This document shows positions 1 to 8,729 of a DNA stretch of 8,729 nt, one piece after another; positions within the stretch are counted from its first letter, which is position 1, and every line of letters begins with the position of its first letter. The position numbers and the translations under genes were made by a program. Origin of the DNA: a virus (lineage: Duplodnaviria; Heunggongvirae; Uroviricota; Caudoviricetes). The stretch lies in the IMG/VR virus record IMGVR_UViG_2645727555_000021, one strand, 5' to 3'. Below the pieces are notes generated by a model. That model was not told the DNA's origin, searched no databases, and was given only the letters and a program-made list of their open reading frames with translations.

Positions 1-118
1 CCATATAACCACCTGAAAGACAATGACATTGCCTGTTTTTATAACGGTAATTGCAGACCATGACAAGCCGCAGCCGTCAGGCTGCCTACTCGAATGTTTG
101 CCATTATTTTCTCCTGAA

Positions 119-144
119 CGCCCCTTATTCAGGGGCGTGTTTTT
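119..144 (+). terminator. Rho-independent terminator (plus-strand orientation)
   Basis: Seen in sequence: 8-bp GC-rich stem ACGCCCCT (119-126) / AGGGGCGT (131-138), loop TATT, followed by GTTTTT (139-144). Only frame 1 is open from the window start to a TGA at 61-63, so a plus-strand gene may end just upstream; 21 codons is too little to call it. Confidence 0.5.
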
Positions 145-251
145 GCCTTACTTCTGCTTTGTTTTTTTCTGTGCCTTTGAAGTGTTCGCGGCGATAGTTT
201 CACCTTCATCTACGTCAAGTGACGTTGGTGATACCGACACGTTCGCCACCA

Positions 252-1949
252 TCACTTTTTTTCGTTAACCTTGCCTGTCAGCATGTCGATAGCACCTTCT
301 TTGGCACGAGTCAGACGCAGGCGGGTGAAGTAGTTTTCACCGTTGCGAGGATGTACTTCGTTGATGGCACTGCCCCAGAGAGTGGTACGGTTAACGAGAG
401 ACGGATTGGTTTCGTGCACGTAAGGGATTGCTGGGACTGCATCACCAGCAATCAGACCGGCTTTACCGATGCCTTCGCCACGCCCATAGAAGAAGATGTC
501 ATCCAGCCCGAAGTCATATCCCTGTGCCTGGAATTGCTCACAGACAGGTTGCGGCACTTCGTAAATACGAATCGTGCCAAACAGGGTGCCGATGTACTGT
601 ACATACGGCGACTGAACGTAACCTGGTGCGATCTGGAAGTGCTGTGGAGGCAGAGAGCGCAGGAAGTTCGCGGCGTCACCACCAGCAAAGCCGCCACGAA
701 TACCCGTTGTCAGGGTACGATTTGCCATTTCTTGAGACAGAGCGTTTACTACGTGACGCAGGAGGCCGACCCAGGACTCATAGTTTTGAGCTTCCGGCAG
801 AGCCACATCAAATTCACGACCATAAACGGTATGGAATACCAGGGTGCGCAGACGCATGATGTCGGTTTCATGGGAGATCCAGTTACGCATCGCGGAGAAC
901 TGAAGTGCCGCTAATTCAAGGCCGTGCTCACGGCTTAAATCGGATGCGGACATTACCGTGTGTTCGGAAGCAATTACGTACTGGGACGGACGAACTTCGT
1001 ACTTACGCATAGCCTGGTTGATCACCGGAATCAGGCTTGGATTGCGCTCGATGTTAATTTCGACCTGAACAGCAATTTCAGTACCTTCTGGCGGAGCCTG
1101 GGTAAATGTAATGTCAATGACACCAGTGTCATAGGCAACTTTGGCAGTCGCTGAGAAAGCATTACCTTTGCTGTCTTTAGCATTGAAATAAAGGTTGCCA
1201 TCGCCGTCGTCAACTTTGGACGGTTTGCGGTTGATCAGCAGTTTGTTATAACCAGCGCGAAGCGGGCAGGATTGTCCCTCAAAATTTTTGATGTCGAACT
1301 GGAAGGTTTTGGTGCTGCCATCCCCTTTAGTGGAAAGGGTATACAGGCGCTTCATTTGAGAATAAACACCAGCTGACTGCATATTCAGTTCGTCACCTTG
1401 TTTGAAGGTGCCGAATTTTGTGCCTGCTACGTTGACCAGTTCATAAATATTTGACTCGTCACGATCACAAGGAACAAAAGTACAGGCATCACTGGTAGCA
1501 GCGCCCAGAGAGGCAGGCAGAATTAGAGCAGCATATTGAGCAACTTTCATTACGCCGTCAGAGCTACGCATTGATTGCGCGACAGACTCAAACATTGCCT
1601 TACCCGTGCCTTCATGGGTATCACTGGCACATTCAGTCATCAGGCGTTCAAGAGCCATGTGTGCGTTCGCCAGGATGTCACTTGCCGGGTAATGACCATG
1701 TTGACGTTTATACTCATGCAGAGACATAGCCCACCCACCAGTGATCTGACGAGCGACCTCTGGATTTACGCCTTCAAACATAGGCACTTTCTGGATTGCT
1801 TTATCCAGGTTTTCCATCATTACTGCCTGGTCAGCAATCATGTTGCCTGCTGCATCGGTGGTCGGATCGACGGTCATAGCCATGACGCTTGCCGCCCGAT
1901 TCATAATCTCGCGCTCGCGATCACGAGCTGGCTGAATGTTTTTATTCAC
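252..1949 (-). CDS. Hypothetical 565-aa protein, function unknown (possibly a virion structural protein; speculative)
   Basis: Long uninterrupted ORF with a GTG start at 1949 (translation begins NKNIQPA), with AGGG about 9 nt upstream. No Walker A, no transmembrane segment, no recognisable catalytic motif by eye. The antisense ORFs 219..914 and 428..859 have low-complexity, Arg/His/Cys-rich translations and are treated as shadows. Confidence 0.75.
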   Translation of the reverse strand: MNKNIQPARDREREIMNRAASVMAMTVDPTTDAAGNMIADQAVMMENLDKAIQKVPMFEGVNPEVARQITGGWAMSLHEYKRQHGHYPASDILANAHMALERLMTECASDTHEGTGKAMFESVAQSMRSSDGVMKVAQYAALILPASLGAATSDACTFVPCDRDESNIYELVNVAGTKFGTFKQGDELNMQSAGVYSQMKRLYTLSTKGDGSTKTFQFDIKNFEGQSCPLRAGYNKLLINRKPSKVDDGDGNLYFNAKDSKGNAFSATAKVAYDTGVIDITFTQAPPEGTEIAVQVEINIERNPSLIPVINQAMRKYEVRPSQYVIASEHTVMSASDLSREHGLELAALQFSAMRNWISHETDIMRLRTLVFHTVYGREFDVALPEAQNYESWVGLLRHVVNALSQEMANRTLTTGIRGGFAGGDAANFLRSLPPQHFQIAPGYVQSPYVQYIGTLFGTIRIYEVPQPVCEQFQAQGYDFGLDDIFFYGRGEGIGKAGLIAGDAVPAIPYVHETNPSLVNRTTLWGSAINEVHPRNGENYFTRLRLTRAKEGAIDMLTGKVNEKK

Positions 1950-2107
1950 GGTTAAGCCCTAAATTCGGGCGCGGCGTGAAGGTTCTTTTGACGGGCTAAC
2001 AATACCTACTTTGTGATTTAGTCAATAGGTTTAGTAAAATAAAATCTATTAACACACATGTTGTTATGTGATTTAATTTTAGTTTTCTAACACAAATCAT
2101 TAGAGTT
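1950..2107. promoter_or_regulatory. AT-rich divergent intergenic region; presumed promoters for the 565-aa gene (leftward) and the 2108-2975 cassette (rightward)
   Basis: 158-bp AT-rich spacer between two divergently oriented coding regions. No -35/-10 pair could be assigned confidently. Confidence 0.3.
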
Positions 2108-2500
2108 ATGGCGTATCGAATCTTTGTTTCGTATAAAAATGGCGCTAAGAGCCACTCTCTGAACACAACAAGTCGCTTTCTTGTTGAGGCGCAGTTGGCA
2201 TCAATTCTTGCCGAAAGTGAGATACTCTCGCTCGCTGAACGGATCGTTATCCAGTTTTCTGGTAGAGATATACTCAATGTCCCCGCCCTCACCCCGGCAT
2301 CCGAAGTTATGGAATCAATTAAATGGCCTGTATGCGGATGTCCTGCCAGGGTTGAAGAGCCGGTAACTGCAACGCTCTACATGCCGAAAGCTGTAAGAGA
2401 TTGGCTTGCTATGGTTGGCAATGGGAAAGTCAGTGCTGGACTTCGCAAGTTAATTGAAATGGCAGATATTCCTGAGTTAAAAAATGCATGGCGACAATGA
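2108..2500 (+). CDS. Hypothetical 130-aa protein with a C-terminal ribbon-helix-helix-like segment (putative DNA-binding regulator or antitoxin-like)
   Basis: ATG at 2108 with only a weak SD (GAG). The C-terminus TATLYMPKAVRDWLAMVGNGKVSAGLRKLIEMA fits a strand / helix / G-x-S turn / helix RHH pattern. The stop at 2498-2500 is 16 nt before the next gene start, suggesting an operon. The start codon is uncertain. Confidence 0.5.
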   Translation: MAYRIFVSYKNGAKSHSLNTTSRFLVEAQLASILAESEILSLAERIVIQFSGRDILNVPALTPASEVMESIKWPVCGCPARVEEPVTATLYMPKAVRDWLAMVGNGKVSAGLRKLIEMADIPELKNAWRQ

Positions 2501-2516
2501 GTAAACAAGGGACAAA

Positions 2517-2975
2517 ATGAGTCACGTTAACCCATCAAAAACACAATATCGCTTAATGCTGGCGATCGCGTCAGCTATACCAACCAGCCTGAATCCCCCG
2601 GCAGGCTATCCCGCTGTTGTTGATGATTGTTTTCAGTATTACGGAGAAGACATCCTGAGCCAGTCCAAAGCGCTCAAGCAGTTATGTAAGGCAGGTATTC
2701 TTCACTGTATCGGAGATCCGGACGATTTTGTTGTTATGCTGGCGGATCGTGACTCTTTTCTACTGTCCTGGAAAGCCGGTGCGCGCGAAGCACGTTTGGG
2801 GAATGGTATTGGTTACATAGACTATAGTGATTGTCCGCTGGCATTTGCTGGTGGATATATGCATTGGCATGAGCGAAATAGAGGCCGTCAGCGTCAGTAT
2901 CGCTTGAGTGACTTTAACGTCTGTCACGGTTTCGAAGAAGCTGACAGCCAGGACATCTGGCTTCAGGAGCCTTGA
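2517..2975 (+). CDS. Hypothetical 152-aa protein, function unknown
   Basis: ATG at 2517 preceded by AAGGGA 5 nt upstream. Soluble, with no transmembrane segment and no recognised motif; Cys/His-containing (CHG, HWHE). Its 3' end overlaps the convergent lipoprotein gene by 13 bp. Confidence 0.65.
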   Translation: MSHVNPSKTQYRLMLAIASAIPTSLNPPAGYPAVVDDCFQYYGEDILSQSKALKQLCKAGILHCIGDPDDFVVMLADRDSFLLSWKAGAREARLGNGIGYIDYSDCPLAFAGGYMHWHERNRGRQRQYRLSDFNVCHGFEEADSQDIWLQEP

Positions 2976-3295
2976 TCCCCCTTCCCTTCCCAAATCTCCC
3001 TGTTTCTTTGGTTATTCAGTGCGTTTCGTTGGTTGCATTCGTCGATCGTGCTGAATAACTGTTCAGCGTATGTCGGATACTTGTTTAACAGCACTGGCGT
3101 GTCCTCTGGCACTAAACAAGGGGAGTAATCAATCAGATTTGCCTGCGGCTTGCTGGTGGCTTCTACGGTAATTTTCACTGGCACGCTGGTTGATGGCTTT
3201 TGCCCGTTCCCGCTGCATCCTGATAACGTCATCAGGCACACGCACATCGTTAATCCCAGCACGGCGTAACGCATTTTCAAGGCGAGTGATTTCAT
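2963..3295 (-). CDS. Outer-membrane lipoprotein, o-spanin (Rz1)-like
   Basis: N-terminus MKSLALKMRYAVLGLTMCVCLMTLSGC is a lipoprotein signal peptide with lipobox LSGC; the mature part is Pro/Ser/Thr-rich with extra Cys. GAGAGGAAAG lies immediately upstream of the ATG at 3295. The gene starts inside the 3' end of the upstream Rz-like gene in a different frame (overlap 3129-3295), matching the overlapped spanin architecture known for P2 lysB/lysC. Confidence 0.5.
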   Translation of the reverse strand: MKSLALKMRYAVLGLTMCVCLMTLSGCSGNGQKPSTSVPVKITVEATSKPQANLIDYSPCLVPEDTPVLLNKYPTYAEQLFSTIDECNQRNALNNQRNREIWEGKGDQGS

Positions 3296-3587
3296 TCTGG
3301 CTTTCCTCTCGTTGTTTGATTAGGTTGGCATTCAGTTCTGCTGTTTTGCGCTGGTACTCCTTTTCCAGTGCTTTAATTCTTTCGTTTTCGGTCAGCATGG
3401 CTGAGCGAGCGTTCTCACTTAACTGTAATGCGGTAGAAAGCGTGTTGTTCGTGCTTTCCAGTTGTGATTTTGAGTCTTCAAGCGATCGGACATACCTGAT
3501 GTGTTCGATAACTGCCGTCGTTGTTCGGTAAATTCCAGAAATGGCTAAAAGCGCAATTACAATCAAAATTATCTTTTTCAAAACCAT
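3129..3587 (-). CDS. Bitopic inner-membrane coiled-coil protein, i-spanin (Rz)-like
   Basis: The ORF is open to 3602, but the ATG at 3585-3587 (MVLKKIILIVIALLAISG...) is directly preceded by GGAGAGG, whereas the ATG at 3602 has no SD. One N-terminal transmembrane helix, then a long charged coiled-coil-like region (EKEYQRKTAELNANLIKQREESQNEITRLENALRRAG). Its C-terminal region overlaps the lipoprotein gene. Confidence 0.55.
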   Translation of the reverse strand: MVLKKIILIVIALLAISGIYRTTTAVIEHIRYVRSLEDSKSQLESTNNTLSTALQLSENARSAMLTENERIKALEKEYQRKTAELNANLIKQREESQNEITRLENALRRAGINDVRVPDDVIRMQRERAKAINQRASENYRRSHQQAAGKSD

Positions 3588-3658
3588 CCTCTCCAGGTTC
3601 ATTTTTTGGTGTTAAACATGTACCAATTTACATCCTTTTGTGTGCCTAAGTGGTGCTT

Positions 3659-4465
3659 CTATGATTCCTTTTTGGTGTTCTTTTGGAGCGCATCGATAAC
3701 GCCTTGTGGCATGATTAAACTGATTGCCGGACTCATTACTGCATCATCCAGTAGAGAACCAGTTAACGTGATGGCGACAGCGTTCTCTAAACCTTTGGTT
3801 GCCTGAGTGGTTGACGTTTTAATGCGACCTGTAAGGGCTACGACACCCTCACTTGCTGAGTTAATTTCGGAGAGTAAAACTTCGGCGGCTGTCACTGCTT
3901 CCCGTAAAGCATCAATTTCATCCTGAGTAATGACTGGAGCCTGAGCGCCCCCAGCACCACCCTGTCCACCATTGCTTTCACCACCACCAGCACTTCCGGC
4001 AGCTTCAATTTTTGCGTTAATGGCGTTCATGGCGGTTTTCAGAGCATCAAGTTTTAGCGCCGTCAATGCGTCCGTTAGAGATTGCGGAATGGAAACATTC
4101 CCCATTCCCTCAACAAGGGCGAAAGCAGGTATGGGGGTCAGCTCGTTACCTTTTGCGTAGCATTCCCAGCCAATCTTCATCTGTAACAACTCTGATGGCT
4201 TGGTGTATGGGGAAAGAGAATCAGCCAGTAATGAAGACGCTTTGCTGGCCTCATTGAGCTGTTCAGAAAAGCCAAGCAATTGAGTAGTCCAGGCCGAAAC
4301 AGAATCAGGATAGGTTTTATCGGCGTGAACTATTCCCTGTATGGCGCTGGCGAGCGATGAGGCTTTTACAGAAGCTGCCCGGCTTATGGTTATAGATTCT
4401 GGTGTAGAGATACCGGCATCTGACAGAATTTTGAAGGCTTTAACTTCACCTATTGAATCAAGCAT
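3659..4465 (-). CDS. Hypothetical 268-aa Ala/Ser/Gly-rich soluble protein, translationally coupled to the PAAR-like gene
   Basis: The ORF extends upstream to 4564, but its in-frame ATG at 4463-4465 overlaps the PAAR stop (TAATG on the coding strand); the first 33 codons of the longer ORF are shadow of the PAAR gene. Contains a low-complexity linker AAGSAGGGESNGGQGGAGGAQAP between helical Ala-rich halves. No transmembrane segment and no catalytic motif seen. Confidence 0.65.
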   Translation of the reverse strand: MLDSIGEVKAFKILSDAGISTPESITISRAASVKASSLASAIQGIVHADKTYPDSVSAWTTQLLGFSEQLNEASKASSLLADSLSPYTKPSELLQMKIGWECYAKGNELTPIPAFALVEGMGNVSIPQSLTDALTALKLDALKTAMNAINAKIEAAGSAGGGESNGGQGGAGGAQAPVITQDEIDALREAVTAAEVLLSEINSASEGVVALTGRIKTSTTQATKGLENAVAITLTGSLLDDAVMSPAISLIMPQGVIDALQKNTKKES

Positions 4466-4749
4466 TATGCAACCTGAAAAATATCCTCGCCGTTGGCGAT
4501 AACAGAACCACAAGAAAGCGGATCGCCTACACAGACAACTCCCTTTCCACCTATCGAAAACCATACTCGCGTCGATACAGCTGCCCCTGGATGTGCACTG
4601 TTACCGTCAGTGTGACTGGGAAACATGGCACCATCTACAACAACTGGCTTACCGTTAACGGTGAACCAGGGAACGGTTTCTGCTACCAGTCGCGGCGGAA
4701 ATCCTCCGTGACCAGAACAAAGGGTGTCGCTGGTGGCTATTGCGCTCAT
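4465..4749 (-). CDS. PAAR-repeat-like protein (94 aa)
   Basis: ATG at 4747-4749 with AGGAGG 6 nt upstream. Translation shows three repeats of the PAAR type: LCSGHGG, WFTVNGKPVVVDGA and VWFSIGGKGVVCVGD. Size and repeat pattern match PAAR spike-tip proteins of T6SS and T4 gp5.4; assignment is by eye, not alignment. Confidence 0.6.
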   Translation of the reverse strand: MSAIATSDTLCSGHGGFPPRLVAETVPWFTVNGKPVVVDGAMFPSHTDGNSAHPGAAVSTRVWFSIGGKGVVCVGDPLSCGSVIANGEDIFQVA

Positions 4750-4834
4750 TCTTCACCTCCTGGTTATCCTCCTATTGTCATCACTTTGTTATTTCGTCAT
4801 TCAAACGGAGAGTTAAATTTCGGAATATTTTTGT

Positions 4835-4990
4835 ATTCTCAATTCATTCTCAAATAAATCTCACTATCAGACCATCATTCAGTGAGTGATTAAGATATTC
4901 TCAAAATAAACTCAACAAGCGCTCTTTTTTATCTCGTTTGGTGTGGATTTTTGGGTGCTTCTCTTTTAAAATTACATTTTAATTCTCAAA
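4835..4990. repeat. parC-like centromere/operator iterons upstream of parM
   Basis: Four exact copies of ATTCTCAA at 4835-4842, 4846-4853, 4897-4904 and 4982-4989. Degenerate copies sit 11 bp after the second and third (AAATCTCA at 4857, AAACTCAA at 4908), giving two phased runs of three with 11-bp spacing, as in R1 parC. The array lies in the divergent region between the PAAR-operon start and parM. Confidence 0.45.
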
Positions 4991-5015
4991 TGTGTCTCAG
5001 AAGTGGAGCAAGAAG

Positions 5016-5972
5016 ATGCGCATTTTTATCGATGATGGTTCAACCAATATCAAAATGCTGTGGGAGCACGACGGGGAAACTCGCACTCACATCAGCCCTA
5101 ACAGCTTTAAGCGCGGATGGTCAGCAACATTTGGTGCGGGCAAGCCGTTTAACTATGTCATTGACGACGAAAAGTATTCATACGACTTGATATCGCCAGA
5201 TGTTCTGCCGACGAATAATGTGGAATGGCAATACAGCCCGCTTAACGTCCTGGCTGTTCACCATGCCCTGCTGACAAGTGGCATTGAGCCGCAGGAAGTA
5301 GAAATTGTGGTCACGCTGCCTCTGGCGGAGTTTTACGACGACGACGCGCAATACAATCTCGATAACATCGAGCGCAAGAAAGCCAGTCTTATGCGCCCCG
5401 TCACGCTGAATAAAGGCAATGTGTTCACGATTAAGAAAGTTACGGTACGACCGGAGTCTATTCCGGCAGGAATTGGCCTGTGCGACAATCTGAACCCTGC
5501 CCATTCTGTTCTTATCGTCGATTTGGGTGGAACTACCCTTGATGTTTCAATGGTCGCCGGGCAAATGACGGCAGTTTCCCGTGTTTTTGGCGATTCGAAT
5601 CTTGGTGTATCACTGGTCACCAGGGAAGTAAGGCAAGCACTTGCAAGGGCCAATACCGAAACGTCAAATTACAATGTTGATCAGCTCATTATTAACCGCC
5701 ACGATGAAGATTATCTGAACGACAATATCAATGACCCATCAGCGATTGGTGATGTGAAAAAGGCCATTGCCGCAAGCATTGACCGTCTGCGTACCCGCGT
5801 TCTTGATGTGATTGGCGACTTTAAAGGATATACGCATGTCATGGTGATCGGTGGTGGCGCACCGCTGGTGGCAGATGCAATTCGCGAGCAAGTTAATATT
5901 CGTGATGACCGTTTCTTCGTGGCGGATGACCCGCAACTTGCTCTTGTTCATGGCCTGAAAGCAATCGGTTAA
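5016..5972 (+). CDS. parM: Type II partition actin-like ATPase ParM (StbA)
   Basis: The N-terminus MRIFIDDGSTNIKMLWEHDGETRTHISPNSFKRGW closely follows the R1 ParM N-terminus (MLVFIDDGSTNIK...HISPNSFKREW) as I recall it, and the motif NVLAVHHALLTSG is also shared. GGAG lies 7 nt before the ATG at 5016; the tracked ORF start at 4992 is a GTG extension without an SD. 318 aa. Confidence 0.9.
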   Translation: MRIFIDDGSTNIKMLWEHDGETRTHISPNSFKRGWSATFGAGKPFNYVIDDEKYSYDLISPDVLPTNNVEWQYSPLNVLAVHHALLTSGIEPQEVEIVVTLPLAEFYDDDAQYNLDNIERKKASLMRPVTLNKGNVFTIKKVTVRPESIPAGIGLCDNLNPAHSVLIVDLGGTTLDVSMVAGQMTAVSRVFGDSNLGVSLVTREVRQALARANTETSNYNVDQLIINRHDEDYLNDNINDPSAIGDVKKAIAASIDRLRTRVLDVIGDFKGYTHVMVIGGGAPLVADAIREQVNIRDDRFFVADDPQLALVHGLKAIG

Positions 5973-5979
5973 CGAGGTA

Positions 5980-6324
5980 ATGTCCATGTCTCAGGAACGT
6001 AAGAAAGTGATGATTTATCTTCGCCCAGAGGCTTATGCCAATGAAAAGGCGGCGAGCGAGAAGATAAAAAAACATAGCGATATGGCAAGAACCGCATTGT
6101 TGGCAGGGCTTGCGCTGGGAGAAGTCGATAGCAGGCTTCCAGGATTACTGGCTTCCCTGCTGACCGAAGACAATAACCCGGAGCTGATCCGAAAAATGCT
6201 GGCATCCTTCCTGGAACTACCAGCTGCGGTTGAGGAGCGCCCTGCCTCCATTGAGCCAGTGAAGGAGCAAGTTGTTGCCAAAAGCGCGTCGGCGCGCAAT
6301 CTGGCTGACTCTCTACCTGATTGA
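5980..6324 (+). CDS. parR: Type II partition adaptor ParR (StbB)-like DNA-binding protein
   Basis: It lies 8 nt after the parM stop, is of ParR size, and the segment ARTALLAGLALGE resembles RAALTAGLALY of R1 ParR from memory. The start may be the ATG at 5986 rather than 5980, because GAGG at 5974-5977 is better spaced for it. Confidence 0.75.
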   Translation: MSMSQERKKVMIYLRPEAYANEKAASEKIKKHSDMARTALLAGLALGEVDSRLPGLLASLLTEDNNPELIRKMLASFLELPAAVEERPASIEPVKEQVVAKSASARNLADSLPD

Positions 6325-6342
6325 CAGAAAATGTGCTGGTTT

Positions 6343-6367
6343 AAGGCTGCAAATTGCAGCCTTTTTT
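6343..6367 (+). terminator. Rho-independent terminator of the parMR operon
   Basis: Perfect 9-bp stem AAGGCTGCA (6343-6351) / TGCAGCCTT (6355-6363) with a 3-nt loop, running into a T-run that ends at 6367; it lies 19 nt after the parR stop. Confidence 0.7.
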
Positions 6368-6395
6368 ATGCCTTAATGGTGTCTAATTGGTGTTA

Positions 6396-6578
6396 ATCTG
6401 GAACCAGTTAGGTGCTGTTATGATGCAATTTTGTATCTGGTTCCAATTTGGGGCTGATTTCGTGTTAAATAGGATGCAATATAAGGTGTATTTGGTCTGA
6501 TTGATGTTATACTTTGCCAAACATTCATGACTCCATTATAGAGCCTGTCCCGCATCAAGAAGGCTCTTATCTGGAACC
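6396..6578. repeat. Repeated ATCTGG(A/T)(A/T)CC motifs upstream of parA; candidate partition site or operator
   Basis: ATCTGGAACC at 6396-6405 and 6569-6578, and ATCTGGTTCC at 6435-6444. Also ATGCAAT at 6423-6429 and 6474-6480, and AATGGTGT / AATTGGTGT at 6375-6390. The last copy sits in the leader between the putative promoter and the parA RBS. Confidence 0.4.
6505..6513 (+). promoter_or_regulatory. Putative extended -10 promoter for the parA operon
   Basis: TGtTATACT at 6505-6513 matches the extended -10 form TGnTATAAT. No good -35 is present. It lies about 100 nt upstream of the parA ATG. Prediction by eye only. Confidence 0.3.
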
Positions 6579-6611
6579 GTTTTGATACCAAAATCACACC
6601 GAGGAACGGAT

Positions 6612-7253
6612 ATGATTATATTGGTAGTCAGCCAAAAAGGTGGCTGTGGAAAATCAACCACAAGCGTAAACATCTGTGCGGAGCTTGCCCGCGCAAATAA
6701 GGATGTAGTGTTACTAGATGCAGACAAGCAAGGAACAGCTGCCCGCTGGGCAGCTGACCGTAACACGGCAGAGGTTTCTCCTGTTATTCATTGTGTCCAG
6801 AAGTTTGGTAATATTCGAGAAACACTTCTCGATCTGGATAAGCGTTATGAATTTGTTGTTGTTGATACAGCCGGGCGCGATAGCAAAGAGATGCGTACAG
6901 GCATAACCGCTGCAGATATTGTGTTGGTCCCATTCAGACCATCTCAACCAGATTTAGACACGCTGGCACACTTTGTTGAAGTGTTTGAAGAGGCTTTGGA
7001 CCTGATGCCTAATCCTAGCATTAAGGCGTTCGCAGTCTTAACAATGGCCCCATCCAATCCGGTTGTGAATGAAACCAATGAGGCCAAAGAGTACCTGGCT
7101 GAATATCCGCAACTGAAGTTGCTGAAAACCATCATTCGTGATCGTAAGGTTTACCGTGATTGCATGGCTGAAGGGAAGGGCGTTGTTGAGATGGACAACG
7201 GGAAAGCTAAAGGTGAAATCCAGATGTTGGTTAAGGAGTTATTAAGTGATTAA
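6612..7253 (+). CDS. parA: Type Ib partition ATPase, small ParA/ParF-like (213 aa)
   Basis: The N-terminus MIILVVSQKGGCGKSTT is the deviant Walker A (KGGxGKT/S) of ParA/MinD ATPases. The C-terminus (RKVYRDCMAEGKGVVEMDNGKAKGEIQMLVKELL) resembles ParF of TP228 from memory. GAGGAA lies 5 nt before the ATG at 6612; the tracked TTG start at 6582 is an unsupported extension. Confidence 0.85.
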   Translation: MIILVVSQKGGCGKSTTSVNICAELARANKDVVLLDADKQGTAARWAADRNTAEVSPVIHCVQKFGNIRETLLDLDKRYEFVVVDTAGRDSKEMRTGITAADIVLVPFRPSQPDLDTLAHFVEVFEEALDLMPNPSIKAFAVLTMAPSNPVVNETNEAKEYLAEYPQLKLLKTIIRDRKVYRDCMAEGKGVVEMDNGKAKGEIQMLVKELLSD

Positions 7254-7533
7254 GCCTCGTAAATCGGTAAAAGCCCCCGAAGTAAAAGACCCCGATCTTG
7301 AACGCCGAATTGAGGATTTTGCAAGTAAGGCTGATTTGGTGCCGGGTGAGCAACCAGAAGACAACAAAGTGCTCGATAAGGACGCTCCACGTGATTTTAA
7401 ATCTATTCGTGTTGGTTTCAATGAATACGAGTACCAGGTACTTGATGCGTTAAGTAAAAAGCATAATCGCAGCAAATTGAATATGATCCGCCATGCTATC
7501 CTCATGTTAGCGGAGTCTGAAGAAGCAAAATAA
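7246..7533 (+). CDS. ParG-like ribbon-helix-helix centromere-binding partner (95 aa)
   Basis: GTG start at 7246 with AAGGAG at 7233-7238, overlapping the parA stop by 8 nt. The C-terminus SIRVGFNEYEYQVLDALSKKHNRSKLNMIRHAILMLAE fits an RHH fold, and the N-terminus is charged and likely disordered, as in ParG. The only in-frame ATG is at codon 80. Confidence 0.6.
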   Translation: MIKPRKSVKAPEVKDPDLERRIEDFASKADLVPGEQPEDNKVLDKDAPRDFKSIRVGFNEYEYQVLDALSKKHNRSKLNMIRHAILMLAESEEAK

Positions 7534-7640
7534 AGTCTTTCAGGTTGGTTTTAGAACTTAAAAAGTCTTGAACCAAAGGTGCACCAATACACCACTAATT
7601 TGGTGTACCTTTACATCCTTTTTGGTTCCACTTGTGTACC
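7532..7640. repeat. Cluster of short repeats and a palindrome between parG-like and the glnS upstream region
   Basis: AAAGTCTT at 7532-7539 and 7562-7569; palindrome GGTGCACC at 7578-7585; GGTGTACC at 7602-7609 and TGTGTACC at 7633-7640; TGGTTCCA at 7623-7630, which echoes the ATCTGG(A/T)(A/T)CC motif upstream of parA. Confidence 0.3.
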
Positions 7641-7801
7641 ATTTTTCATTAATTTACTTATGCGCAAAAGTGGGCTTCATGAAAAAGCTCATTATTGAAA
7701 TAACGATAGAAAGCAATTTCTAATCAACTAGTGGTTGTCAGCCTATTCGGCTTATAAGATCATACGCTGTTATACGTTGTTTACGCTTTGAGGAATCCAC
7801 A

Positions 7802-8729
7802 ATGAGTGAGGCAGAAGCCCGCCCGACTAACTTTATTCGTCAGATCATCGATGAAGATCTGGCCAGTGGTAAGCACACCACAGTACATACCCGTTTCCCG
7901 CCGGAACCGAATGGCTATCTGCATATTGGTCATGCGAAATCTATCTGCCTGAACTTCGGGATCGCCCAGGACTATAAAGGCCAGTGCAACCTGCGTTTCG
8001 ACGACACTAACCCGGTAAAAGAAGATATCGAGTACGTCGAGTCGATTAAAAACGACGTTGAATGGTTAGGTTTTCACTGGTCTGGCAACATCCGTTACTC
8101 CTCCGATTATTTTGACAAACTCCATGCCTATGCTGTTGAACTGATCAACAAAGGACTGGCGTATGTTGACGAACTGACGCCGGAACAGATCCGCGAATAC
8201 CGCGGCACCCTGACGCAGCCGGGTAAAAACAGCCCGTACCGCGACCGCAGCGTTGAAGAGAACCTGGCGCTGTTCGAAAAAATGCGTGCCGGTGGTTTTG
8301 AAGAAGGTAAAGCCTGCCTGCGTGCGAAAATCGACATGGCTTCGCCGTTTATCGTGATGCGCGACCCGGTGCTGTACCGTATTAAGTTTGCTGAACACCA
8401 CCAGACTGGCAACAAGTGGTGCATCTACCCGATGTACGACTTCACCCACTGCATCAGCGATGCGCTGGAAGGTATTACGCACTCTCTGTGTACGCTTGAG
8501 TTCCAGGACAACCGTCGTCTGTATGACTGGGTACTGGACAACATCACCATTCCTGTTCATCCGCGCCAGTACGAATTCTCGCGCCTGAATCTGGAATACA
8601 CCGTGATGTCCAAGCGTAAGCTGAACCAGCTGGTAACCGACAAGCACGTTGAAGGCTGGGATGACCCGCGTATGCCGACCATTTCCGGTCTGCGTCGTCG
8701 TGGTTACACTGCTGCTTCTATTCGTGAGT
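7802..8729 (+). CDS. glnS: Glutaminyl-tRNA synthetase, N-terminal 309 codons (3' partial, continues beyond the window)
   Basis: The translation [53 protein letters not shown]... carries the class I HIGH motif (HIGH) and VMSKR (KMSK motif) and matches E. coli GlnRS from memory, with a few substitutions. GAGG lies about 8 nt before the ATG. The ORF track missed it because it runs off the window; the antisense ORFs 8066..8647 and 8128..8424 are shadows. Confidence 0.96.

Follow-up and report, generated by a model that had tools for sequence, protein, structure and literature searches.

The major capsid protein (MCP) of phage P1, gp23, was shown by cryo-EM to have an HK97 fold with an insertion domain (I-domain) and to be the dominant head protein, with 775 copies in a T=13 shell (PMC12810830). 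The first 124 residues of gp23, which are cleaved by Pro, are missing from the mature capsid and have been proposed to serve as a scaffold (PMC12810830). In both P1 and Escherichia phage D6, a P1-like plasmid prophage, gene 23 is followed by the sheath gene (22), 21, pmgG and bplB. The D6 counterpart of gene 23, orf51 (H7U15_gp076 / D6_51), is entered in the D6 record as the major capsid protein, with a remark on its similarity to P1 gene 23, and D6 also has homologues of pro, prt, darA, hdf, lpa and pacA/B. Phage T4 uses separate scaffold proteins besides a short propeptide. The capsid proteins 10A/10B of T7 and T3 include a minor form with a C-terminal extension, which arises from a shift into the -1 frame close to the 3' end of the major capsid gene. 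Fraser et al. reportedly described in 2006 how programmed frameshifts append Ig-like domains to structural proteins of phages.

The window analysed here is a whole stretch of 8,729 nt from a virus of the Caudoviricetes (IMG/VR record IMGVR_UViG_2645727555_000021). Positions 87..8729 share 99.0% identity with D6 and up to 99.9% identity with E. coli and Salmonella plasmids of ~75–96 kb. The phage-plasmid origin at which the initial annotation had guessed is therefore borne out: the window comes from a D6-like plasmid prophage, with ParM/StbB and ParA partition genes beside virion genes. These partition genes and a copy of glnS are among the neighbours of the capsid gene. The partition-side neighbours are the same as those of D6 orf51, whereas P1 has parABS upstream in the place taken in the window by ParM/StbB and a short ParA. 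In plasmid CP058021.1, which like D6 is collinear with the window, the capsid gene also heads the late operon 23-22-21-pmgG-bplB, the order known from P1; in the window itself, the downstream side of the gene is interrupted by an insertion sequence (IS) and by the end of the window. Positions 1–93 are 100% identical to a multi-copy sequence in Shigella and ETEC plasmids that adjoins an IS66-family tnpB, and positions 1–86 have no match in D6 or D6-like plasmids. This IS66-family insertion lies ~150 bp downstream of the capsid gene, after ~5 codons of a small Ig-like gene, the remaining frame of which reads MANIRVGSLTAAACHGLQLPL up to a stop codon. In D6, by contrast, the same gene (orf49) is intact and encodes 92 aa. 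The GC-rich hairpin behind the capsid gene unit is probably a transcript end or an attenuator/stabiliser structure. The coordinates of these and the following features are collected in Table 1.

Table 1. Features of the capsid gene region in the 8,729-nt window
Feature	Position	Strand	Remarks
IS66-family insertion sequence, terminal ~89 bp	1..89		Remainder beyond the left end of the window
Start of small Ig-like (Big_2) gene, D6 orf49 equivalent	90..104	-	ATG at 102-104 behind AGGAG; interrupted by the IS
GC-rich hairpin after the capsid gene unit	118..138		All other relatives, P1 included, have a counterpart 3' of gene 23
-1 frame extension (D6 'orf50')	148..255	-	Translation VMVANVSVSPTSLDVDEGETIAANTSKAQKKTKQK, then stop
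Imperfect extended RNA hairpin, possible frameshift stimulator (weak support)	175..248 (approximate)	-	Starts ~4-6 nt after the heptamer
Major capsid protein gene	252..1949	-	Encodes a 565-aa precursor; begins with GTG and ends with TGA; orthologous to D6 orf51 and homologous to P1 gene 23
A_AAA_AAG slippery heptamer, candidate programmed -1 frameshift site	255..261	-	Codons GAA AAA AAG, X_XXY_YYZ phase, TGA directly after
Mature shell-forming part, residues 122-565	255..1586	-	From model secondary structure and Foldseek
Helical N-terminal scaffold (delta) domain, residues 1-121	1587..1949	-	Predicted to be removed by prohead protease; boundary inferred
Shine-Dalgarno-like AGGG	1957..1960	-	7 nt 5' of GTG; kept in 7/7 D6-clade loci

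The capsid gene is the longest complete ORF of the window, and the ORF listing confirmed its extent, its 565-aa product and its GTG start as initially annotated, placing it on the minus strand. The GTG start is supported by the alignment with P1 gp23, which already begins at residue 4, and by the occurrence of GTG at the identical place in all 7 D6-clade loci examined, D6 itself having the same start; P1 gene 23 likewise has a non-ATG start codon, TTG. A scan of positions 1–2600 for sigma-70 promoters gave a site count not above that of shuffled sequence, and none was placed for the capsid gene. The pattern of the P1 late promoter LP23 (AAGTGACTT-N4-TAAAAT, with up to 3 mismatches) was absent upstream of the capsid gene and gave one chance-level match elsewhere. 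Dependence of the capsid gene on Lpa is assumed here by analogy with P1.

We identify the gene product with near certainty as the major head protein encoded by a plasmid prophage of the P1 family and D6 type, and no weighty evidence speaks against this assignment. In tblastn comparisons, it shares 99.6% identity with the D6 MCP over all 565 residues and 44.2% identity with P1 gp23 over 98% of the length. A phmmer search against the PDB matched 'Gp23' (9ukm_A/9vl4, E=3.9e-164, residues 4–560 versus 3–560), and a profile-HMM search, which the initial annotation had proposed as a check, matched PHROGs family phrog_1014 end to end (E=7e-220, residues 1–556 versus positions 1–567 of the 567-position profile). 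Scans of the 565-aa protein against Pfam and NCBIfam each returned 0 matches, and PF07068 (T4 Gp23, gathering threshold 24.4 bits) did not match the window protein at E<=0.01. Among 60 family members, 7 (e.g. P0074, at 34.4 bits) do pass the PF07068 threshold, which counts for the capsid assignment; as the window protein itself does not, the relation to the T4 Gp23 family holds at the superfamily level only. The earlier statement that the protein has no recognisable family features is thus correct for Pfam and NCBIfam but too strong in general, given the matches to phrog_1014 and 9ukm_A; the protein had seemed unplaceable because no Pfam or NCBIfam model reaches it. Its capsid identity was already known from the D6 annotation, and the gene is an ordinary one, not an orphan. 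From D6 and P1 we infer that the protein is present in the particles.

An AF2 model built from a 60-sequence alignment reached a pLDDT of 85 and a pTM of 0.78, while a model from the single sequence was uninformative (pLDDT 35). The top Foldseek match in the PDB was 9ukm_A (E=2e-52, 48% identity, 413 alignment columns versus 440 modelled residues), which is linked to the P1 head by the PDB title of this match, 'Cryo-EM structure of bacteriophage P1 head'. The next ranks were taken by the capsid proteins of S6, T4 (gp23/gp24, PF07068) and phiKZ, which share with the window protein the HK97 core and an insertion domain (Foldseek E values 1e-7 to 7e-15) but differ from it in having only ~7–14% sequence identity, the window protein scoring below the Pfam threshold. 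All 48 matches with E<1e-3 were HK97-fold capsid or encapsulin shells, so that structure prediction followed by fold comparison, the other check proposed initially, returned nothing else. The sequence match to 9ukm and the fold matches to 9ukm, T4, S6 and phiKZ therefore identify an HK97-fold capsid protein. The model predicts that it folds like HK97, with the insertion domain facing outward and a helical scaffold domain at the N-terminus.

In the model, the N-terminal domain consists of helices at residues 6–30, 41–53, 63–84, 90–108 and 117–126, and the shell part contains a beta-rich insertion domain (~160–300) followed by a long spine helix (347–373) and the A-domain. An M-[FL]-E-[SA] motif is kept in 55–60 of 60 homologues and reads M119-F-E121-S122 here; P1 residue 125 aligns with residue 126 of the window protein. 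Based on the conservation of this motif and on the first residue resolved in P1, we propose M119-F-E121-S122 as the candidate cleavage site. The likeness to P1 gp23 (9ukm / 9vl4; PMC12810830) thus comprises 44% identity in full-length homology, the HK97-like fold with I-domain, a helical N-terminal domain of ~120 residues and M-L/F-E-S close to where the resolved part of the mature shell protein begins. If assembly proceeds as in P1, a capsid precursor of 565 aa would be synthesised late during lytic growth, with the helical N-terminal domain of ~120 residues acting as a built-in scaffold during prohead assembly. Several hundred copies (775 in P1, T=13) would assemble around the portal to form the prohead, the prohead protease (the Pro homologue) would then cut off the N-terminal domain, probably after M-F-E121, and the shell would mature before being filled with DNA by the PacA/PacB terminase.

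The initial annotation had guessed at a capsid, portal or another structural protein, and of these only the capsid stands, as orthologue of D6 orf51 and homologue of P1 gp23. A portal, sheath, tail or baseplate protein could be suspected from the size, since the portal and sheath proteins of D6, with 560 aa and 552 aa, are similarly long, and the record of Salmonella phage SJ46 labels a homologue 'putative baseplate protein'. However, homologues of the portal (prt) and sheath (22) genes are separate genes elsewhere in D6, sequence and predicted fold alike agree with the shell subunit that was modelled from experimental data for the P1 head (9ukm), and no portal, sheath or baseplate structure is among the significant fold matches; this reading is effectively refuted, and we give it practically no chance. 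The same is true of an accessory-segment product outside the virion, be it an enzyme or plasmid cargo: the lack of a Pfam or NCBIfam family and the nearby partition genes and glnS copy would suit such a protein, but neither the sequence nor the fold searches gave an enzyme family or fold at any threshold used, a match which the initial annotation had named as what would refute its guess, the strong matches being to capsid proteins only, and the matches to 9ukm in sequence and fold refute it. It also appears quite improbable that the capsid gene is intact but a silent relic in a decaying, non-inducible prophage-plasmid. The IS66-family element ~150 bp downstream and the truncation of the adjacent Ig-like gene count for this, as do the defective D6-like variants described in Salmonella (PMC6799933), and the IS-hit element in the window may not be a fully functional phage. 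On the other hand, the full-length ORF shares 99.6% identity with its counterpart in D6, a viable phage, and there is collinearity with D6 at 99.0% identity for its start, for the slip site described below and for the remainder of the 8.6 kb. Furthermore, the Ig-like gene is absent from P1 and from most relatives and is therefore probably dispensable.

At its 3' end, the capsid gene differs from P1 gene 23, which has a plain TAA end without slippery heptamer, -1 ORF or Ig-like gene and is directly followed by the sheath gene. The A_AAA_AAG slip site, conserved but so far unannotated, is a new observation. It is shared with D6, together with the -1 ORF (orf50). All 22 distinct D6-clade 3' ends have it unchanged and in phase, although the stop after the heptamer varies (TGA, TAA, TAG, or a stop 6 nt further on). 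As an X_XXY_YYZ heptamer in zero-frame phase (GAA AAA AAG TGA), it resembles -1 sites of the dnaX, IS911 and lambda G-GT types. No frameshift is annotated in the D6 GenBank or RefSeq records, where orf50 is a separate hypothetical gene. The -1 frame is open for 21–40 codons in all 22 D6-clade loci and contains a Big_2 strand-A motif (V.V..VSV.P....V..GE). The same tail is found in frame in 3 sister-clade loci (L024, L027 and L052), and the homologous tail is in frame in P0012/P0013. Two Rosenbergiella-type loci of an unrelated clade have G_GGA_AAG, then TGA and a 72-codon -1 ORF; 56 other loci have neither heptamer nor -1 ORF. Since the 25 tail-carrying loci belong essentially to two sister clades, they do not represent 25 independent events.

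These features suggest that a minor form of the capsid protein is likely to be produced by -1 frameshifting. A small fraction of ribosomes would slip back one base on A_AAA_AAG at the last two codons, and the product would be a 600-aa capsid protein (predicted junction ...NEKK-VMVANVSVSPTSLDVDEGETIAANTSK) whose C-terminus would carry the initial beta-strands of a Big_2 (Ig-like) domain. The possible stimulator hairpin has a folding energy of -25.1 kcal/mol in the window (z=-3.1, 0 of 200 shuffles as stable), but over 5 relatives its consensus comes to no more than -12.9 kcal/mol; the covariation term is +0.68, several pairs are broken, and covariation gives no support. No consistent SD-like box was seen upstream of the heptamer in the sequences read. 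The extension evolves fast, with 9–11 nonsynonymous versus 4–6 synonymous codon changes in 35 codons, and codon-position and dN/dS-style counts on it revealed no clear third-position bias or purifying selection.

The -1 ORF could instead exist without frameshift expression, either as the remnant of an ancestral in-frame Ig tail that lost its frame through an indel in the A-run or as a separate mini-gene (GTG/ATG, 250–255). The weak purifying selection on the 35 codons, the missing covariation support for the stimulator and the annotation of orf50 as a separate gene in D6 agree with this, and as the extension begins with GTG ATG, independent initiation is conceivable. In addition, the lysine codons of the heptamer are also kept as protein (…EKK / …GKK), which could alone preserve the A-run. 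We nevertheless consider such an origin unlikely, while granting it an appreciable chance, because the exact X_XXY_YYZ phase is kept in 22 of 22 loci, all with an open -1 frame, despite differing C-terminal residues, stop codons and stop distances. A mini-gene is further contradicted by L025/L029 and L026/L028, whose extensions start with GTA GCA or with GTC CCA/GGA and therefore offer no start codon or SD. Also at odds with a silent ORF are the unrelated clade, in which a different canonical heptamer again abuts TGA and precedes a -1 ORF, and the sister-clade phages, which translate the same tail in frame.

If the 600-aa form is produced by frameshifting, its tail would correspond to the beginning of a Big_2 domain (strands A/A' and the start of B). 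The extension alone has no Pfam match, whereas D6 orf49 alone matches Big_2 (PF02368) with E=6e-8 at profile positions 22–79 (32.9 bits), and an artificial splice of the tail with D6 orf49 covers positions 2–79 (40.0 bits); neither the tail nor orf49 is a complete Big_2 domain by itself. The tail may thus anchor or complete the strand-A-less Ig-like protein encoded just downstream. The likeness to T7/T3 10A/10B and to frameshift-added Ig-like domains lies in the -1 shift near the end of the capsid gene and in the Ig-like extra sequence, both predicted here; the difference is that the tail is a Big_2 fragment of only 24–35 residues and no whole domain, the rest being in a separate gene. A more specific proposal, which we hold to be doubtful, is that, in D6-type phages, the two parts of a divided Ig-like domain together make up a capsid decoration, the frameshift tail donating A/A' and the orf49 product docking to it. 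The missing Big_2 strands A/A' would then be displayed on the C-termini of a minority of capsid subunits, and the downstream protein (Big_2 without strand A, ending in another A/A' segment) would dock by donor-strand complementation, possibly also onto further copies of itself. Should this be the case, the frameshift rate would set the number of decorated sites, and in the sister clade, with the tail in frame, every subunit would be competent.

D6-like P1-family phage-plasmids are common in E. coli, Shigella and Salmonella, and the phage-plasmid nature of this segment is confirmed. The apparent orphan becomes the head protein of a well-described D6-like P1-family lineage, so that the value of this result lies in annotation; it also draws attention to an abundant capsid family that is still without a model in the curated general libraries (Pfam, NCBIfam). 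The slip site, which may add an Ig-like fragment to some capsid subunits, is a modest new lead. If the frameshift is real, D6 'orf50' would have to be read as the trans-frame capsid tail and not as a gene, and the D6-type phages would make it possible to study in a simple system how the stoichiometry of capsid decoration depends on frameshift efficiency.

The initial annotation had described a 565-aa ORF beginning with GTG and showing no recognisable family features. The ORF was confirmed by the ORF listing and is the longest complete ORF of the window. Its lack of family features holds for Pfam and NCBIfam, neither of which gave a match, so that the earlier impression is understandable, but it does not hold generally: phrog_1014 (PHROGs) covers the protein end to end (E=7e-220), and a sequence search of the PDB retrieved the 568-aa 9ukm_A, 'Gp23' (E=3.9e-164, residues 4-560 versus 3-560). 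In tblastn comparisons, the protein shares 99.6% identity with that of Escherichia phage D6, a P1-like plasmid prophage, and 44.2% identity across 98% of its length with gp23 of P1, P7, RCS47, SJ46 and others. PF07068 (Pfam T4 Gp23) was passed by 7 of 60 relatives, the threshold not being reached by the window protein itself; at the sequence level, this capsid family is at the edge of the T4 Gp23 family. The data support assignment of the protein as the major capsid protein (MCP), orthologous to D6 orf51 and homologous to P1 gp23. This identity is not new: the D6 record labels the gene 'major capsid protein; similar to P1 gene 23; orf51', and the structure of the P1 protein is available.

The cryo-EM structure of the P1 head shows gp23 as its major capsid protein, 775 copies of it being arranged in a T=13 lattice; gp23 combines a canonical HK97-like fold with an outward-pointing insertion domain resembling that of T4 gp24 (PMC12810830). 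AlphaFold2 was uninformative on the window MCP sequence alone (pLDDT 35); with a 60-sequence homologue alignment it gave a model (pLDDT 85, pTM 0.78) in which about 125 helical residues at the N-terminus are followed by a beta-rich stretch (approximately 160-300), a long helix spanning 347-373 and a C-terminal part of mixed alpha/beta structure. Fold comparison, which the initial annotation had proposed as a check, was run on this model with Foldseek against the PDB. The best match was 9ukm_A, 'Cryo-EM structure of bacteriophage P1 head' (E=2e-52, 48% identity, 413 columns), followed by capsid proteins of jumbo phage S6, T4 (gp23 and gp24), phi-kp24 and phiKZ and, lower down, by many smaller HK97-fold capsids and one encapsulin; all 48 matches with E<1e-3 were shell proteins. 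Portal, tail and enzyme readings are excluded by this outcome. The original guess of a capsid or other structural protein is thus sharpened to MCP by D6 orthology, P1 homology and the fold search.

The GTG start is credible, since it is preceded by AGGG with a 7-nt spacer, the alignment with P1 gp23 starts at residue 4, and GTG, with the AGGG box ahead of it, occupies the corresponding position in all seven D6-clade loci examined; P1 gp23, in contrast, has a TTG start there. No promoter was found for the capsid gene, a sigma-70 scan being at chance level and the P1 LP23 late-promoter pattern being absent.

In P1, the prohead protease Pro removes the first 124 residues of gp23, which are hence missing from the mature shell, and a scaffold role has been proposed for this N-terminal part (PMC12810830). 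By homology with P1, the 565-aa precursor would be produced late in infection, its N-terminal helical domain would act as internal scaffold while the prohead assembles around the portal, and a Pro homologue would then cleave this domain off. Since D6 carries homologues of pro, prt, darA, hdf, lpa and pacA/pacB, the whole pathway is conserved; no Pfam family matched the Pro homologue of D6. The first resolved residue of P1 gp23, 125, aligns with MCP residue 126, and M119-F-E121-S122 lies four to five residues upstream of the latter, with M-[FL]-E-[SA] kept in 55-60 of 60 homologues. The M-F-E121 motif resembles the L/I-x-E specificity of T4-type prohead proteases, and we propose a candidate cleavage point after Glu121.

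The suggestion of a phage-plasmid origin is borne out by window 87-8729, which is 99.0% identical to D6 (NC_050154.1, 52212-60852) and matches plasmids of E. coli and Salmonella (roughly 75-96 kb) at up to 99.9% identity. In D6, orf51 is followed on one side by orf50, orf49 (Ig-like), the sheath gene (22), 21, pmgG and bplB, and on the other by orf52, orf53, a spanin-like pair, upfB/upfC (PAAR), ParM/StbB, ParA and glnS. Profile scans of the window neighbours (Pfam, PHROGs) agree with this annotation, and P1 has the same order 23-22-21-pmgG-bplB. P1 differs in having parABS upstream of gene 23, replaced in the window by the ParM/StbA-StbB-like and ParA-type systems. The spanin-like ORFs, the shorter of which has a lipoprotein-like signal, are hypothetical proteins in D6 and positional counterparts of P1 ppfA/mlp. 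The P1 upfC and upfB products are baseplate spike components (PMC12810830); the PAAR protein is mislabelled 'alanine racemase' in one plasmid record. D6 carries about 10 copies of a 16-nt motif of the window, TGTGTTAGAAAACTAA, some of them beside c1, lpa and repL and an inverted pair near hrdC. P1 has its C1 repressor operators at these places, which makes the motif a probable C1 operator of D6.

Features of the window and of the related D6 locus
Feature	Position	Strand	Remarks
IS66-family end and truncated start of Ig-like gene	window 1-104		noted together with L002 3001-3093
A_AAA_AAG heptamer, X_XXY_YYZ phase	within window 148-261	minus	final codons GAA AAA AAG TGA
MCP ORF, single	window 252-1949	minus	565 codons, GTG start
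16-nt motif	window 2079-2094	minus	between capsid gene and orf52
Overlapping ORF pair	window 2963-3602	minus	157 aa and 110 aa; match Rz-like spanin families (PHROGs)
upfC and upfB homologues of P1	window 3659-4749	minus	upfC with PAAR motif, 94 aa
Two adjacent partition systems	window 4992-7533	plus	ParM/StbA and StbB-like; short ParA-type ATPase and small downstream ORF
glnS (glutaminyl-tRNA synthetase) start, phage-borne	window about 7800-8729	plus	as annotated in D6 and related plasmids; gene extends beyond window end
D6 orf49, Ig-like	L001 11740-12018		homologues in L024-L029, 92-96 aa

Window 1-86 had no match in D6 or D6-like plasmids, where an Ig-like domain-containing protein is annotated at this place, and window 1-93 matches at 100% identity a multi-copy sequence that, in plasmids of Shigella and ETEC, adjoins an IS66-family tnpB. 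This indicates an IS66-family insertion, by which the Ig-like gene is cut after about codon 5, the remaining frame being MANIRVGSLTAAACHGLQLPL followed by a stop. Since most relatives have no Ig-like gene, the phage is not necessarily disabled by the insertion.

At the end of the capsid gene, the heptamer directly abuts the TGA stop, and the -1 frame past it is open for 35 codons (VMVANVSVSPTSLDVDEGETIAANTSKAQKKTKQK). This extension is D6 orf50, annotated there as a separate hypothetical gene; public records hold no frameshift annotation for orf50 or the capsid-gene end. We compared the 3' ends of homologous capsid genes, 88 of them distinct, drawn from genomic, metagenomic and viral-contig sequences. 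The 22 D6-clade loci (MCP 80-100% identical) have an in-phase A_AAA_AAG, a -1 ORF of 21-40 codons with the same strand-A-like motif and, as the next gene, a small Ig-like gene (92-96 aa). Their heptamer is invariant though the preceding residues vary (…NEKK, …TGKKSQ, …EEKKSE), and the stop codon (TGA, TAA or TAG) lies 0 or 6 nt past it. A sister clade (3 loci, 69-74% identical) carries a homologous tail in frame (…VEGVTLSPASITVSAGDEITAGNTKKDS), followed by an Ig-like gene of the same size. The sheath gene comes next in all other loci: 5 of Serratia/Erwinia type, with a whole Big_2 (Ig-like) domain fused in frame; 2 of Rosenbergiella type (L008 and L078), with another canonical slippery heptamer, G_GGA_AAG, abutting TGA and a 72-codon Ala/Lys-rich -1 ORF; and 56, P1 clade included, with neither heptamer nor -1 ORF. 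The Rosenbergiella -1 ORF is Ala/Lys/Asp-rich, resembling in-frame low-complexity tails of other relatives, and its candidate slip site, of the lambda G/GT type, is a second, independent case in which a capsid gene may be frameshifted.

D6 orf49 matches the Big_2 profile at positions 22-79 only and therefore lacks the first strands, strand A included; its C-terminal end is a second A/A'-like segment (…VSAVSVEPTTKEVTVGDNFTVSES), and the protein looks like one unit in a chain of strand-swapped Ig domains. When the -1 tail was artificially joined to orf49, the match extended over positions 2-79 and scored 40.0 bits, compared with 32.9 bits before, and the tail probably encodes the first strands of the domain.

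With the conserved heptamer and open -1 frame, production of a 600-aa trans-frame form of the capsid protein is fairly likely. Against this count the fast evolution of the tail, with no clear synonymous excess, the lack of a Pfam match to the tail alone, and the downstream hairpin, whose stability in the window exceeds that of shuffled sequence (z=-3.1) but which receives no support from covariation. So does the fact that all 25 tail-bearing loci belong to two sister clades, which reduces the perfect co-occurrence of tail and Ig-like gene to about one evolutionary event. In L039, an IMG/VR contig with a D6-clade variant, a length change in the second A-run of the extension gives the C-terminal end …KAQKKQSRSKAKTRP; the lysine-rich tail end is thus not conserved in detail. 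That the capsid tail serves to complete or anchor the Ig-like protein encoded downstream is a further idea, which we consider unlikely. Frameshifts in capsid genes, exemplified by T7 10A/10B, are of a known kind, and so is the addition of Ig-like domains through a frameshift. What goes beyond existing annotation is only the unannotated candidate slip site and the Ig-like domain that is probably split between the tail and orf49.
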